Positions 5,110 through 20,543 are shown, counted from the first letter of the stretch. The stretch: 20,543 bases of DNA from Candidatus Nanohaloarchaea archaeon (GCA_046539225.1 JBKHHG010000012.1:1-20543); one strand, 5' to 3'. The notes: generated from the sequence alone by a model not told the origin. Made by a program: numbers and translations.

Positions 5110-5739
5110 TTACCGGGCGCCTTCTGCTTCCCGCTCCTTTCTTTCACGGGTCATAACGGCTCTCACACTGTTGTCGTTGTTGTGTGCGCCGACTAACTCG
5201 TTTTTCAAGGCCTCGACCGCGTCTTCCGAGGATGCGAGCCGGTTTTCGTAGGCTCCCTGCACCAGAAGTCTTATTGCAAGGTCGACCCTTCTCTGAGGTG
5301 AGACGATGACAGCTTTTCTTGCTCTTGCGCCTCCTCTCTGGTAGGTGACGACCTCTTCGACAGGTGCGGAGTTCTCGATCGCGTTGACGAGCACCTGGAT
5401 AGGGTTCTCATCAGTCTCCTCTTCTATTTTTTCGAATGTTTCTTCAATTATCTTCCAGAGCTTTGCTTTTTGGCCGGTGTTCCTTCCGGATGTGAGCAAG
5501 TGTTTGTTGCCGCGGTGTCCTGCGACGTACATCCTGTTGAGAAGCCTTTCGACGACCGGCACATCTGCCTTGTAGAACTGTTTGTCGGTGTGACGGCCTT
5601 TGCTCCGTGGCTCCATGATGTTTTCAAGGTTGACGTATCTTACAAGGCCGTCGTCCTCTACCTCTACCTCTTTTGCATCCCATCTTCCAAATGTAAGGAT
5701 CTCATCGTCTTCAATGTTGATTGTAGCAGCGTTACTCAC
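5110..5739 (-). CDS. rps7: 30S ribosomal protein uS7 (GTG start)
   Basis: VVERLLNRM, NPIQVLVNAIENSAPVEE and VSPQRRVDLAIR motifs; between rps12 and EF-2. Confidence 0.97.
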   Translation of the reverse strand: MSNAATINIEDDEILTFGRWDAKEVEVEDDGLVRYVNLENIMEPRSKGRHTDKQFYKADVPVVERLLNRMYVAGHRGNKHLLTSGRNTGQKAKLWKIIEETFEKIEEETDENPIQVLVNAIENSAPVEEVVTYQRGGARARKAVIVSPQRRVDLAIRLLVQGAYENRLASSEDAVEALKNELVGAHNNDNSVRAVMTRERKEREAEGAR

Positions 5740-5801
5740 TCGGGAACACCTCTGGTGTTTTCTGCGTGATCAAGAAAATCATCTGTATTTTCGTTGTCCA
5801 T
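5736..5801 (-). other. 21-codon upstream ORF made largely of the double-hairpin element; its stop overlaps the rps7 start (GTGA)
   Basis: SD-like GGTGAT at the rps12 stop and ATG at 5801. Translation MDNENTDDFLDHAENTRGVPE*. TGA 5738-5736 overlaps GTG 5739-5737. Confidence 0.5.
5741..5793. repeat. Double-hairpin palindromic element, copy A
   Basis: c-GGGAACACC tct GGTGTTTTC-tgcgtgatcaa-GAAAAT catctgt ATTTTC-g; same architecture as the three copies in asnB-dph6. Confidence 0.7.
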
Positions 5802-5809
5802 TTTTTTGA

Positions 5810-6232
5810 TCACCGTGTTGGTTTCTCCTGCTCTCCCGCAACAAGTTCCTCGAGAGAGATACCGTTTACCTTGATTACCTTGTACCTGACAGTTGGAATA
5901 TCTCCTTTAGGCCCGGAGTCCGCTCCACCGATCCCTTCGATCAGGACCTCGTCGTGCTCATCGATATACTCTATGGCTCCGTCGCCAGGTACAAAAGCTG
6001 TCAACTGTTTACCGTTTTTCAAAAGCTGTACACGCACGCACTTTCTCAACGCGGAGTTAGGCTGCTTTGCTTCGATTATCCTCTTCTCAAGTACGATTCC
6101 TCTTCCCTGGGGTGAACCTTCGAGAGGATCCGCTTTTTCCCTGAGATTCAGCATTCTTCTCTTGTAATCTTTATCGCTCCAGCGGTGCTCCTGCCTCTTC
6201 TTCTTGATCTTACGCGCGCTGTACATTCCCAT
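5810..6232 (-). CDS. rps12: 30S ribosomal protein uS12
   Basis: [24 protein letters not shown] and [10 protein letters not shown] motifs. Confidence 0.99.
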
Positions 6233-16455: not shown

Positions 16456-16908
16456 ATGAAAAAGCAGGGGCTGCTTCATCTTCACGGCCTTTTACACCAG
16501 TTCAAGGAGCACTATGAAGAAGCAGAGGGAGAGGAGCTGGATCTGCTGGAGTACGATGAGAGAGGGGTAGGTCCGACCTCAATCCATGCATCAAAAAGTG
16601 AGCATAAAGAGGCTGTTTTCGATCTCGGCAGTTCTCTTCAGGAAGAGCTGAATGATTACAGTCCTGATGTTGAGACGGAAGAACTTTATGAAAATGTTTT
16701 GGAGAAAGCGGCGGAGCTTTACAGGCCTGAGCATGATGACGAAGTGTTTTTGAACCTTGAGCATGTAGGCCTCACCCTTAGAGATGCCAGAGTACTGTCA
16801 TCGGAGACCCCAGCAGAACACAGATCGGTTTTCGGGCGTTCAGGCCTTGTTGTCCCGGCGTATGAGGTTGAGGAATGGTCGCGGGAGACGGTTGAGCAGC
16901 CGGGATAA
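16456..16908 (+). CDS. UPF0058-family protein with C-terminal extension, copy 1
   Basis: MKKQGLLHLHGLL...Y.ERGVGPTSIHASKSEHKEAVFDL is the UPF0058 signature. Confidence 0.85.
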   Translation: MKKQGLLHLHGLLHQFKEHYEEAEGEELDLLEYDERGVGPTSIHASKSEHKEAVFDLGSSLQEELNDYSPDVETEELYENVLEKAAELYRPEHDDEVFLNLEHVGLTLRDARVLSSETPAEHRSVFGRSGLVVPAYEVEEWSRETVEQPG

Positions 16909-16950
16909 ACGACCGATAAATAAAGATTCTCTAAGTATTGGCCCCTTGGG

Positions 16951-16988
16951 AAAAATCAGGCCATAAGCCCCTGATATTTTTTACTTTT
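16951..16988 (+). terminator. Imperfect hairpin plus T-tract between the UPF0058 paralogues
   Basis: AAAAATCAGG-ccataagcc-CCTGATATTTT followed by TTACTTTT. Confidence 0.35.
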
Positions 16989-17006
16989 TGGACTTATTTT
17001 ATCTCT

Positions 17007-17480
17007 ATGAGGAAGCAGGAGTTGGTTCATATTCATGGGCTATTGGATAGTGTTCGGAAGCACTATGATCAGGAATCAGATCAAACTATAGGGCCTTCAA
17101 AGTATATTGAGAGAGGGGTTTTGCCTACATCCTTACATAAGTCTAAGACAGATCACAAAGACGCAGTCCTAGAACTTGGAAACTCCATTGTTCAAGAAAT
17201 CAATAAGCCAGGATCAACTGAAGCCAGTTTAGATACGTTGTATAATGCCGTTTTAGACGCGGTGGTTGACCAATACGAAAGAACATACATAGATCAACAA
17301 TCAGAGGAAATCTCTGTGAGTCTTGGATTAACCCGATTAACTGAGGAACAGGCTAAGCGCCTAGATAGTGAGACTTCTGTAGATTACGAAAAATATTCTA
17401 CAGGAGGTTCTCGTCTAAAAGTCAATAGAGAAGAAGCAGAGGAATGGGCTGAAGAAACAATCGGACAACTTAATAACTGA
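17007..17480 (+). CDS. UPF0058-family protein with C-terminal extension, copy 2 (157 aa)
   Basis: MRKQELVHIHGLL...ERGVLPTSLHKSKTDHKDAVLEL. Start set to ATG 17007 by alignment with copy 1. Confidence 0.85.
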   Translation: MRKQELVHIHGLLDSVRKHYDQESDQTIGPSKYIERGVLPTSLHKSKTDHKDAVLELGNSIVQEINKPGSTEASLDTLYNAVLDAVVDQYERTYIDQQSEEISVSLGLTRLTEEQAKRLDSETSVDYEKYSTGGSRLKVNREEAEEWAEETIGQLNN

Positions 17481-18596: not shown

Positions 18597-20147
18597 ATGT
18601 GCGGTATCGCAGGAGCCAAAAACCAGGAAAAAGCAGAACAACTTCTGGAACTCCAGAGCCACAGAGGCCAGAGCCGCGATACTCTCAAAACAGGAAAATT
18701 CTCTCTCGGCAACAACCTGCACTCAGTCGTCGGCAACGTACAACAGCCTCTCAAAGAAGGAGGAGTACTGACGGCGAACTGCGAAATATACAACTGGCGC
18801 GAATTAAACAAGAAATACGGCTGGGAGACGGAAAACGACGCAGAAACACTGCTGAAACTACTGGACAAAAAAGGAAATGAAGCACTGGAAGAACTGGACG
18901 GCATCTACGCCTTTGCATACATACGCGACAACCAAGTTATGGTGGCGCGGGACAGGCTCGGCGTTAACCCGGTCTGGTACACAGAAAAGGATGGAGGGTT
19001 CGCTTTCGCATCCGAAAGACAGGCTCTGGAGAAAGCAGGGTACGAAGCCCGGGAACTACACCCCAGAAAAATACTGAAGTACAACCTTGAAACAGAAGAG
19101 ATCGAGTTCGAGCACCGAGAATTCTTCGAGATCGATGTCCCGAAGAACTCAGCCAGTTCTTCTGAAAACCAGAAAACTCCGGAAGAGTTTTCGGATGAGG
19201 ACAAAGATATAGAGGAGGCCGCAGAAGAAATCAAGGACAAGTTCCTGGAATCAGTTGAGAAAAGAGTTCCGGAAGGCGAAGTAGGGCTTTTATTCTCCGG
19301 CGGTGTCGATTCTACGATGATTGTAGCAGCACTACAGGAATTAGGTAAAGATTTCACTGCCTACACTGCTGGCATCCAGCATGGAAACGTGGATGCACCT
19401 CGAGACATGGATTGGGCGGAAGAAGTCGCGGAAGAAATGGGTATAGAACTGGAGAGCTACGAAGCCGATTTAGAGGAGGTCGAGGAAGTTCTTCCCGAGT
19501 TGACGGACTGGATCTCATCGACAAGCGTCGTTAAAAACGGTGTCGCCCTGCCGTTCCACTTCTCTCTCCGAGGAACTGCAAGTTCCGAAGGTCCAGAAGA
19601 CTCACAGTCTTCGTCTGAAAAAGTCGTCTTCTCAGGGCTGGGAAGCGAGCAGCTCTACGCAGGCTACAGTCGAATGGAGAAATACTTGAACAAGGAATGT
19701 CTCTCCGGGTTAAGAAAACTGTTTGAACGCGACTTGTACCGGGACAACGTTGTCAGCTTCCGCAACAGCCGCGAGCTCCGTGTTCCGTTCCTGGATCATG
19801 GCTTGATTGAGCATGCTTTGACGATTCCGGGCGAATTCAAGAAGAAAGATGATTACAGGAAGTACGTTCTCAGAAAAGCTGCGGAAAAGCTTGGCGTACC
19901 GGAGAAAGTCGCCTGGAGAGGTAAGACCGCGGCCCAGTACGGCAGCAACTTCGACAAAGCGATCTCCCGCCTCGCCAAGGACAAAGGCTTTAATCACAAG
20001 CAGGAATACTTGAACTCGTTACGAGGCGACGAAAATCGGAGATTTTCTGAGCAGCAGAAGATCTCTGATCTTCAACTGCCAAACAAGAAGTTGGCGGCCC
20101 TTACCTCGGGTGGCAAGGATTCGAACGCTGCGCTTTACAGGATGTAA
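18597..20147 (+). CDS. asnB: Asparagine synthetase B-like glutamine amidotransferase, N-terminal part of an AsnB-Dph6 fusion ending at a premature TAA
   Basis: MCGIAG (Ntn Cys, start 18597), HRG, NCEIYN, ARDRLGVNP, FASE, PP-loop LFSGGVDS, RVPFLD and KYVLRKAA. A second PP-loop, TSGGKDS, lies just before the stop. Confidence 0.88.
   Translation: MCGIAGAKNQEKAEQLLELQSHRGQSRDTLKTGKFSLGNNLHSVVGNVQQPLKEGGVLTANCEIYNWRELNKKYGWETENDAETLLKLLDKKGNEALEELDGIYAFAYIRDNQVMVARDRLGVNPVWYTEKDGGFAFASERQALEKAGYEARELHPRKILKYNLETEEIEFEHREFFEIDVPKNSASSSENQKTPEEFSDEDKDIEEAAEEIKDKFLESVEKRVPEGEVGLLFSGGVDSTMIVAALQELGKDFTAYTAGIQHGNVDAPRDMDWAEEVAEEMGIELESYEADLEEVEEVLPELTDWISSTSVVKNGVALPFHFSLRGTASSEGPEDSQSSSEKVVFSGLGSEQLYAGYSRMEKYLNKECLSGLRKLFERDLYRDNVVSFRNSRELRVPFLDHGLIEHALTIPGEFKKKDDYRKYVLRKAAEKLGVPEKVAWRGKTAAQYGSNFDKAISRLAKDKGFNHKQEYLNSLRGDENRRFSEQQKISDLQLPNKKLAALTSGGKDSNAALYRM
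19141..19193. repeat. Double-hairpin palindromic element, copy B (in-frame in asnB)
   Basis: c-GAAGAACT cagcc AGTTCTTC-tgaaaacca-GAAAACTC cggaa GAGTTTTC-g; encodes PKNSASSSENQKTPEEFS. Confidence 0.85.
19569..19613. repeat. Double-hairpin palindromic element, copy C (in-frame in asnB)
   Basis: cga-GGAACT gca AGTTCC-gaaggtcca-GAAGACT cac AGTCTTC-g; encodes RGTASSEGPEDSQSS. Confidence 0.8.
20030..20074. repeat. Double-hairpin palindromic element, copy D (in-frame in the AsnB-Dph6 linker)
   Basis: c-GAAAATC gga GATTTTC-tgagcagca-GAAGATC tct GATCTTC-a; encodes ENRRFSEQQKISDL. Confidence 0.85.
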
Positions 20148-20543
20148 CGCAGGAACAATGAGATCTCGTGTCTGGTGACTCTGCGGTCGGAGAACAGGGA
20201 TAGTTACATGTTTGATTCGAAGAAGTCGGAGAAAGACCTGGAATGGCAGAGCGAGCAGCTGGGAGTTCCGTTACTGGTTCAGGAGACTGAGGGTGAGAAA
20301 GAGGAAGAACTGGATGATTTAGAAAAAGCGATGAACCGGGCGCGGAAGGAGTACGGTGTGGAAGGCGTTGTCGCCGGCGCCCTCGCATCAACCTACCAGC
20401 GCGACCGCGTTGACAGGGTGGCGGAGAAAGCCGGTCTGAAAGTTTTCGCTCCGCTCTGGCGCGAGGATCAGGAACGCTACATGAAATGGTTGATACGTGA
20501 AGGCTTCGAAGTCGAGATTACCGATGTGGCGGCGCGAGGCCTC
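20085..20543 (+). pseudogene. dph6: Diphthine-ammonia ligase (Dph6, PP-loop ATPase) domain interrupted by in-frame TAA at 20145-20147; runs off the window
   Basis: The same frame reads KLAALTSGGKDSNAALYRM*RRNNEISCLVTLRSENRDSYMF...GEKEEELDDL...GVVAGALASTYQRDRVDRVAEKAGLKVFAPLW...LIREGFEVEITDVAARGL. The frame is open for 132 codons after the stop. Confidence 0.85.

Follow-up and report, generated by a model that had tools for sequence, protein, structure and literature searches.

In-frame copies of a two-hairpin, probably mobile repeat of about 50 bases in a nanohaloarchaeal AsnB-Dph6 gene

The window analysed here, the whole 20,543-nucleotide stretch of contig C12 from nanohaloarchaeal genome G000 (607 kb, 82% complete), carries a gene for an AsnB-Dph6 fusion protein with three short in-frame inserts. 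Judging from alignment with orthologues these are true insertions, and each consists of two hairpins separated by a short spacer. It is very probable that they represent a mobile element and are translated. The fuller reading, that the inserts are copies of a likely mobile repeat of about 50 bases, brought in by an enzyme from outside the resident genes and loosely looped when translated, is one we hold to be reasonably probable. Integration by a transient transposase-type enzyme in particular is put forward more tentatively, as a possibility rated just short of probable.

The host gene starts at 18597 on the plus strand and its product joins GATase, Asn_synthase and Dph6 domains. The AsnB-like part (GATase_7 and Asn_synthase), followed by the beginning of the Dph6 domain, spans 18597 to 20144, a TAA codon interrupts the fused Dph6 domain at 20145-20147, and the remainder of this domain (diphthamide synthase, PF01902) continues in the same frame from 20148 to 20543, where the contig end truncates it. 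The TAA is found in this assembly only and orthologues read through. Either an assembly error or a nonsense change confined to this strain is the likely cause, since contigs of runs X1 and X2 have sense codons at 20145-20147 at full depth, with three of the four bases at 20144-20147 differing in both runs. On the protein tree, the allele at 18597-20144 lies apart from its congeners G001 and G004, a placement that hints at allele exchange, which might be a route by which the three inserts came together in one gene. Elsewhere in the window, two UPF0058 genes lie in tandem at 16456-17480, flanked by radC and nucS.

Insert 1 (19140..19193, plus strand), with 54 nt encoding the 18 residues PKNSASSSENQKTPEEFS, is located in frame at the junction of the glutaminase and synthetase domains and has its hairpins at 19142-19162 and 19172-19192. 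Insert 2 (19569..19613, plus strand; 45 nt, RGTASSEGPEDSQSS) lies in frame directly 5′ of the VVFSG motif with hairpins at 19572-19586 and 19596-19612. It is the most eroded of the three and, being itself a training sequence, matches the covariance model described below with an E-value of 3.4e-4. Insert 3 (20028..20075, plus strand; net 48 nt), also in frame, occupies the synthetase-Dph6 linker, with hairpins at 20031-20047 and 20057-20073 or, as an alternative fold, a single long hairpin. The hairpin pairs are perfect in all three (stems of 8+8, 6+7 and 7+7) and the 9-nt spacers end in CA, as a previous model-generated reading of the same DNA (the sequence-only reading) had described at these places. 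Its boundaries required adjustment, insert 1 being 54 and not 53 nt long and insert 3 giving a net 48 nt, and its description of the peptides as Ser-rich suits inserts 1 and 2 but not insert 3, which has just two Ser residues. It made no mention of the TAA in the Dph6 domain. Folding z-scores against dinucleotide shuffles were -3.2, -1.7 and -5.4 for inserts 1, 2 and 3 respectively; the alternative long hairpin that had been suggested is indeed the preferred fold of insert 3.

Alignment with orthologues (taken without locus L022) revealed the empty sites, and most orthologues lack the inserted peptide segments. Empty alleles exist at all four window sites, these being the three inserts and a fourth copy discussed below, and the earlier claim of a non-autonomous repeated micro-element inserted in frame is upheld. 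Site 1 is filled in two of 29 sequences (the window gene and 28 orthologues), the only other carrier being G004. Site 2 is filled in four of the 29, three other genomes holding different sequences there, and site 3 in five of the 28 sequences that reach it, including four other genomes. At least one insert was present in 11 of 66 distinct AsnB-Dph6 sequences, metagenome loci included (two of the 66 being distant homologues), and none was found in 39 further, more distant homologues. About eight distinct insert types have entered this gene, in both orientations and all with the frame kept, and stop codons are absent from the interior of every family-level match. The gene is a hot spot, all three coding copies of G000 falling within it. 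Insert 1 and its counterpart in G004 differ at eight positions, all of them unpaired in loops and spacer (8 of 19 unpaired against 0 of 32 paired positions). At site 1 of the asnB-dph6 gene in G021 (L018), a run of 12 bases matches the beginning of insert 1 exactly and may be what a lost copy left behind.

The carriers of inserts are scattered on the protein tree, which was built with insert columns removed from 55 rows of at least 560 residues. The distribution of site 3 requires four changes on this tree, at least three of them forced by well-supported branches. A filled and an empty sequence (L164 and L165) are sisters, and gain, precise loss or allele exchange is therefore ongoing on an evolutionary scale.

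An AlphaFold model of the host protein has a mean pLDDT of 84.5, with the inserts forming low-confidence loops: values are about 57-59 for insert 1 (residues 181-200) and below 50 for residues 330-337 (insert 2) and 482-497 (insert 3). Insert 1 aligns to the inter-domain region of human ASNS. Frame and model together suggest that the inserts are likely read as three loose protein loops. Removal from the mRNA as bulge-helix-bulge (BHB) introns, akin to this genome's tRNA introns, themselves rich in hairpins, is considered very improbable. Introns were called in 16 of 27 G000 tRNAs, some containing the same hairpins, and one strict BHB geometry does span insert 1 (control rate 4/250). However, strict BHB is absent at inserts 2 and 3, leaving one site of three, where the geometry competes with hairpin 2 and excision would remove 63 nt, three codons in excess. 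Furthermore, splicing would need no frame keeping, yet about eight insert types are in frame, the chance of which is approximately (1/3)^8 for eight independent insertions.

The fourth copy lies on the minus strand in the junction between rpS12 (5810-6232) and rpS7 (5110..5739, minus strand), which is 61-64 bp longer than in four congeners in a comparison where eight of 30 loci gave results. Here a mini-ORF of 21 codons (5736..5801, minus strand) starts at the original rpS7 ATG (5801), encloses both hairpins and an SD-like GAGGTG, and has its stop in a GTGA overlap with the new rpS7 GTG start (5739). The spacer of this copy measures 11 nt, and its predicted fold is not more stable than that of shuffled sequences (z -0.4). 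On sequence comparison it is nevertheless a real insertion, one of the start-codon class rather than the in-frame class.

The element consists of an NC-GAAA...TTTC hairpin, a spacer of 8-11 nt usually ending in CA, a second hairpin and RAN. Its core measures 41-55 nt, frames and orientations vary, and the encoded peptides are unrelated. A scan of G000 for this layout returned 17 hits at a score of at least 17, against 0, 1, 0 and 0 in four order-5 Markov genomes. With a covariance model built from 33 copies, 15 distinct loci were found in G000 at E < 0.001, 12 of these being training sequences, and within the order 53 of 70 genomes had matches, as did 40 of 49 within the family, so that the further copies anticipated from the window do exist (at least 15 in G000). 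Between 0 and 74 matches were obtained per genome, with both strands counted and at most 84 candidates scored in each. Two weak model hits, C23:4989 and C18:5737, were noted, of which the former was rejected as it aligns to G034 without a gap. Double hairpins of whatever type are absent from the 651 kb of genome G020 (roughly 1 Mb in all) that were read, against a density of 1.8-6.5 per 100 kb in four other genomes. None of the copies is matched in Rfam at the gathering score or at E-values up to 0.1.

Conservation of structure over sequence, a further claim of the sequence-only reading, is borne out at sites occupied in two genomes. In 11 disjoint comparisons, 124 stem pairs stay the same, 26 are changed on both sides and four are broken, such that 26 of 30 stem differences are compensatory. 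Divergence in these comparisons is 18% of positions in stems, 27% in loops and 21% in spacers, and some of them may set side by side copies that entered a single hot spot independently. Stem pairing in the rows of the model is 93% compared with 79% when shuffled, a difference that is partly circular because the rows had been chosen as hairpins. Copies within G000 are at most 75% alike, and the within-genome maximum spans 75-91% among genomes.

Seventeen records were found with the element pattern, eight from Nanohaloarchaea/Nanohalobium, three from 'uncultured archaeon' and six labelled as bacteria, three of the last having a model score of only 21-26 bits. Together with the acidic proteins, these labels suggest that G000 is nanohaloarchaeal. 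Pattern scans of IMG/VR gave 0, 4, 0 and 20 stretches, the best viral model score being about 21 bits from partial hits, and no viral copy or autonomous partner was found in them. Outside the nanohaloarchaea, the model has matches in a second archaeal phylum, where 15 of 151 genomes carry them; among these are all nine of one genus, which is a methanogen by its MTD gene. There the hairpins form intergenic arrays of 2-11 (L416-L435; genera g43 and g60). Five hairpins of 17 bases are identical between these arrays and the nanohaloarchaeal element, although some likeness is expected because the methanogen loci were picked by the model. No description of the two-hairpin element was found in the literature searched, a set in which most subscription papers were not covered; a nanohaloarchaeal genome paper mentions tRNA introns and two-hairpin ncRNAs, with no such repeat in the available part of its text (PMC10266531).

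Automatic sorting of 106 distinct copies, a sample enriched for asnB loci in which insert 3 of the window was missed, placed 42 at start codons, 17 next to tRNAs, 12 in coding regions and 35 elsewhere. The addition of peptide segments to archaeal proteins, to which the sequence-only reading had given prominence, does occur but as a side outcome, start-codon and tRNA-end copies outnumbering coding ones. Hits inside coding regions number 0 of 25 in the complete genome G034, 3 of 17 in G000 (all in AsnB-Dph6) and 1 of 15 in 338 kb of G063, with one start-codon copy dropped. A second protein host is the tail of an HhH-GPD glycosylase in G004, with a homologous site in G063.

Copies at start codons create a mini-ORF of 15-23 codons from the old ATG, which is mostly coupled to the next gene. 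The distance from its stop to the new start is -1, -4 or 0 in 30 of the 42 copies, whatever the frame, and an SD-like GGTG, complementary to the 16S 3′ end, is present in hairpin 2 of 33 of the 42 compared to 3 of 64 other copies. Start-codon targets in G000 are the genes for S4 (C4:3763), S15, S7, L24, PheRS beta and a transketolase-type subunit. Other copies are nested in other repeats and in tRNA introns, and one lies inside an RT locus of G063. At L287:15191-15606 (G034) a copy takes the place of a short loop in archaeal RNase P RNA, of which G022 has the short form. Copies were also identified in the left-end palindrome of an IS605 element of G063 and at a tnpB 3′ end; with 2 of 19 scan hits in 338 kb of G063, such ends are not a main target overall.

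Comparison of filled and empty alleles provides an insertion signature. The net gain equals the core plus eight bases in 13 of 41 pairs, and in 9 of 19 with flank identity of at least 80%, a mode which fits a target duplication of three bases. Five element bases with a 3-base repeat were found in 31 of 106 copies, against a mean of 15.8 and a maximum of 24 in 200 swaps of the flanks, and nine of the 31 duplications are ATG. Totals of four and six flanking bases are likewise above controls. Three pairs are particularly clean: at the IS605 left end, G063 exceeds G064 by 57 bp, equal to the core of 49, five bases and a repeated TTT; the paralogues in contigs C78 and C75 of G063 differ by 54 bp, with a TTG repeat containing one mismatch; and at rpS7, in G034 versus G022, the ATG is repeated. 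Direct repeats of 8-19 bases that overlap the outer arm flank 11 of 94 copies, compared with 1.4 expected. As a rule for the family long repeats were rejected, being limited to those 11, two of which (at L080 and G034:676577) are still core plus eight against the empty allele and therefore look like scars of earlier copies. From these repeats and the totals of four and six, the ends of the element are judged to be fairly but not perfectly fixed.

The window itself displays no target duplication at the three insert sites, where sizes are core plus 3, an eroded site and core plus 5; the values of 3 and 5 may reflect later trimming to keep the frame. The absence of a duplication, as originally reported, thus holds for the three window sites and fails for the family as a whole. 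Recent activity was not seen, copies in G000 being no more alike than given above and no contig from runs X1-X3 skipping any of five tested copies (the three inserts and two others), although contigs drop rare variants.

The sequence-only reading had looked to HUH enzymes (RAYT/TnpA) for mobilisation, and a resident enzyme of this type is not borne out. The Y1 HUH domain PF01797 is present in only four of the order's 70 genomes. Single-contig genomes that have 26-45 matches all lack it, as do the nine genomes examined from the methanogen genus with the same hairpins. One of six PF01797 loci has an adjoining copy, and this is a passenger in the IS605 end, for which G064 has the empty allele. 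Samples of five genomes gave Cas1 in one, and DDE_Tnp_1 (over cut-off), IS110 and DDE_Tnp_1_4 in none. Integrase and TnpB do not track the element in such samples either, both being present in the zero-copy genome G020, and the 28 candidates from a Pfam scan of G034 proteins absent from G020 (651 kb read) include no transposase. Self-comparison of G034 and part of G063 revealed no enzyme sharing the ends of the element, in a search that was non-exhaustive. Reverse transcriptase (RVT_1) was detected in seven of 70 genomes of the order. Five of the seven RT loci we take to be diversity-generating-retroelement-like, and that of G034 has a template repeat and a variable repeat. Among the retroelement-like RT loci L304, L315, L316, L317 and L321, two have extra double hairpins just 3′ of the template repeat. 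At the RT locus of G063, the target gene ends in codons contributed by the copy, and the template repeat is seemingly lost.

The size mode and the 3-base repeats are the reason for preferring a structure-reading enzyme that passes through lineages. Five of the eight gained bases would belong to the element and three to a target duplication, which would imply a short staggered cut with stems rather than loops being read. Copies would then persist at harmless sites: in proteins where the frame is kept and the position is in a loop or linker; on start codons, where the duplicated ATG, the GGTG of hairpin 2 and a stop overlapping the new start would hand translation on; and at tRNA ends, where the duplication would restore the gene. 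After insertion the arms would likely stay complementary through template-switch repair, and copies may be lost precisely, between the short duplications. The main rival, which we rate as doubtful but deserving of attention, dispenses with a dedicated transposase and has host replication and repair copying hairpin DNA or RNA by microhomology-primed template switching into nicks or stalled forks; the duplications would then vary in length, and target sequence would make up the outer arms. It would accommodate the excess of 8-19-base repeats overlapping the outer arm, the copy in contig C22 of G000 in which one arm matches the first codons of the target gene, the compensatory stem changes, and the complete genome G034, which has 34 matches and no transposase among the tested families and the 28 candidate proteins; template-switch correction of inverted repeats is also supported in proteobacteria by the portion of PMC5941160 available. 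However, the sharp mode at core plus eight is more like an enzyme with fixed ends, the long repeats at L080 and G034:676577 keep that same gain, and G020 possesses the core machinery without any copies in the part read.

Less credit is given to readings in which RNA is the source or the target of selection. Retro-insertion of a small structured RNA, reverse transcribed by an enzyme such as that of a diversity-generating retroelement and primed at the target, would explain a bias to highly expressed sites, and ribosomal protein starts, tRNA ends, RNase P RNA and the RNA of an RT locus are indeed among the targets; genomes with RT also tend to have more matches (Mann-Whitney p 0.055 for 30 family genomes, kin not being independent), and one copy is in the RT locus of G063. 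Nevertheless we consider it distinctly unlikely, as an RVT_1 match is absent from 12 of the 17 genomes with at least 15 matches, both orientations occur within one gene, and inspection of the stems made no adenine-directed pattern evident. Equally improbable in our estimation is that these are old regulatory RNA structures under selection, acting in translation pausing between domains or in coupling control in ribosomal operons, with the patchiness due to loss and allele exchange more than movement. Occupation of the same start codons across several genera, the confinement of all three coding copies of G000 to domain borders or loops of one gene, and the restriction of changes between insert 1 and its G004 counterpart to unpaired bases speak for it; against it are the copies in an IS605 end, a tnpB 3′ end and other repeats, the near-complete genomes without copies, and the different sequence types found at one site. 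A regulatory role can hold alongside mobility, as a later use. A broader proposal, which seems unlikely on present evidence, is an archaea-wide two-hairpin superfamily of nanohaloarchaea and methanogens, moved from RNA or ssDNA by host enzymes without a transposase. If true, it would mean copying into highly transcribed sites and a single 50-base design with three rescues of its target, these being an in-frame loop, an SD with a coupled mini-ORF and a restored tRNA end, and it would be a source of new introns in tRNAs and new loops in proteins.

Phenomena of this type are already known from bacteria, and the element would appear to be an archaeal counterpart of the RPE, MIRU and REP-like micro-elements that is missing defining features of each. 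The Rickettsia palindromic elements (RPEs), named in the sequence-only reading, are a fair analogue: they are about 150 bp long, encode a conserved peptide and in nearly half of cases lie within ORFs, according to passages of PMC10969869, and like the present element they are palindromic, inserted in frame in unrelated protein genes, presumably translated and without an enzyme of their own. In contrast, the element is around 50 bp, has no shared peptide, varies in frame and orientation and occupies mostly non-coding sites. With the mycobacterial MIRUs, as portrayed in the section of PMC12548453 drawn upon, it shares insertion at the start codon, an internal ORF coupled to the host gene and the -4 spacing; MIRU coupling spares host-gene expression (PMC12548453, same section). 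It differs from them by description in being archaeal, with two hairpins, GGTG in hairpin 2 and spacings of -1, -4 and 0, and in also entering proteins, tRNA ends and non-coding RNAs. REP, REPIN and BIME sequences are likewise short hairpin dimers folding separately or as one long hairpin, and some intragenic REP dimers encode 20-30 residues (both from excerpts of PMC3733652); arrays like those of REPs are seen in the methanogen relatives. However, the GTAG/CGTC tag is absent, the flank composition of 94 copies being N-(A/C/T)-C (left) and G-A (right), stems are AT-rich with a spacer of 8-11 nt, and no Y1 tyrosine transposase tracks the family.

Transposase-free repeats of halophilic archaea include SMR-A and the PATEs of Haloquadratum walsbyi, and one copy here resembles SMR-A in its insertion into a near-terminal IS605 palindrome. 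In the available extract of PMC3119063, SMR-A is about 110 bp and over 95% conserved, PATEs are derived from IS605 ends, and both are given as lacking target duplication. By description the element is set apart from SMR-A by its length of about 50 bp, a within-genome likeness of at most 75-91% and the presence of duplications, and from PATEs by the modal core plus eight with 3-base repeats and by an IS605 end that is interrupted and not resembled. Consensus ends of TCGAAA...TTTCGA recall MITEs, but these are the hairpin arms, the duplication length ranges from 0 to 19, and no cognate transposase sharing the ends was found with the families tried, which were non-exhaustive.

The question of how transposase-free micro-repeats such as RPEs, MIRUs, CGTC REPs and haloarchaeal SMRs move becomes testable with the present family, which is small, offers defined filled and empty alleles, ranges between zero and dozens of copies in related genomes and belongs to a phylum that has cultured members. 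It also points to streamlined symbiont genomes repeatedly gaining protein loops at the same three sites of one enzyme, and it affects annotation through shifted gene starts and mini-ORFs of 15-23 codons in ribosomal operons.

Several further loci are worth mentioning. A variant copy lies about 36 bases upstream of the 16S rRNA start in G000 (C30:4173-4227, L037). At C22:1866-1917 (L048) of the same genome, 55 bp have entered a small conserved gene out of frame at codon 6, and one arm of this insertion mirrors the target sequence; the gene is apparently rescued by an ATG in the hairpin loop, predicted to recreate nearly the same N-terminus. Nested, multiply stacked hairpin insertions occur at ribosomal operon junctions of G063 (C12:92970-93080 and 93490-93610, L322), the genes downstream presumably being L22 and S3-like. 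G000 also has another element, about 90-130 bp long, in which both a non-palindromic head and a hairpin at the terminus are conserved (C13:7700-7810, C4:11030-11110, C27:1006-1160, C27:4790-4900, C2:555-707 and C10:7343-7491). It is found where tRNA 3′ ends are duplicated, ahead of the 5′ ends of tRNAs and as introns within them, and two-hairpin copies are nested within it.
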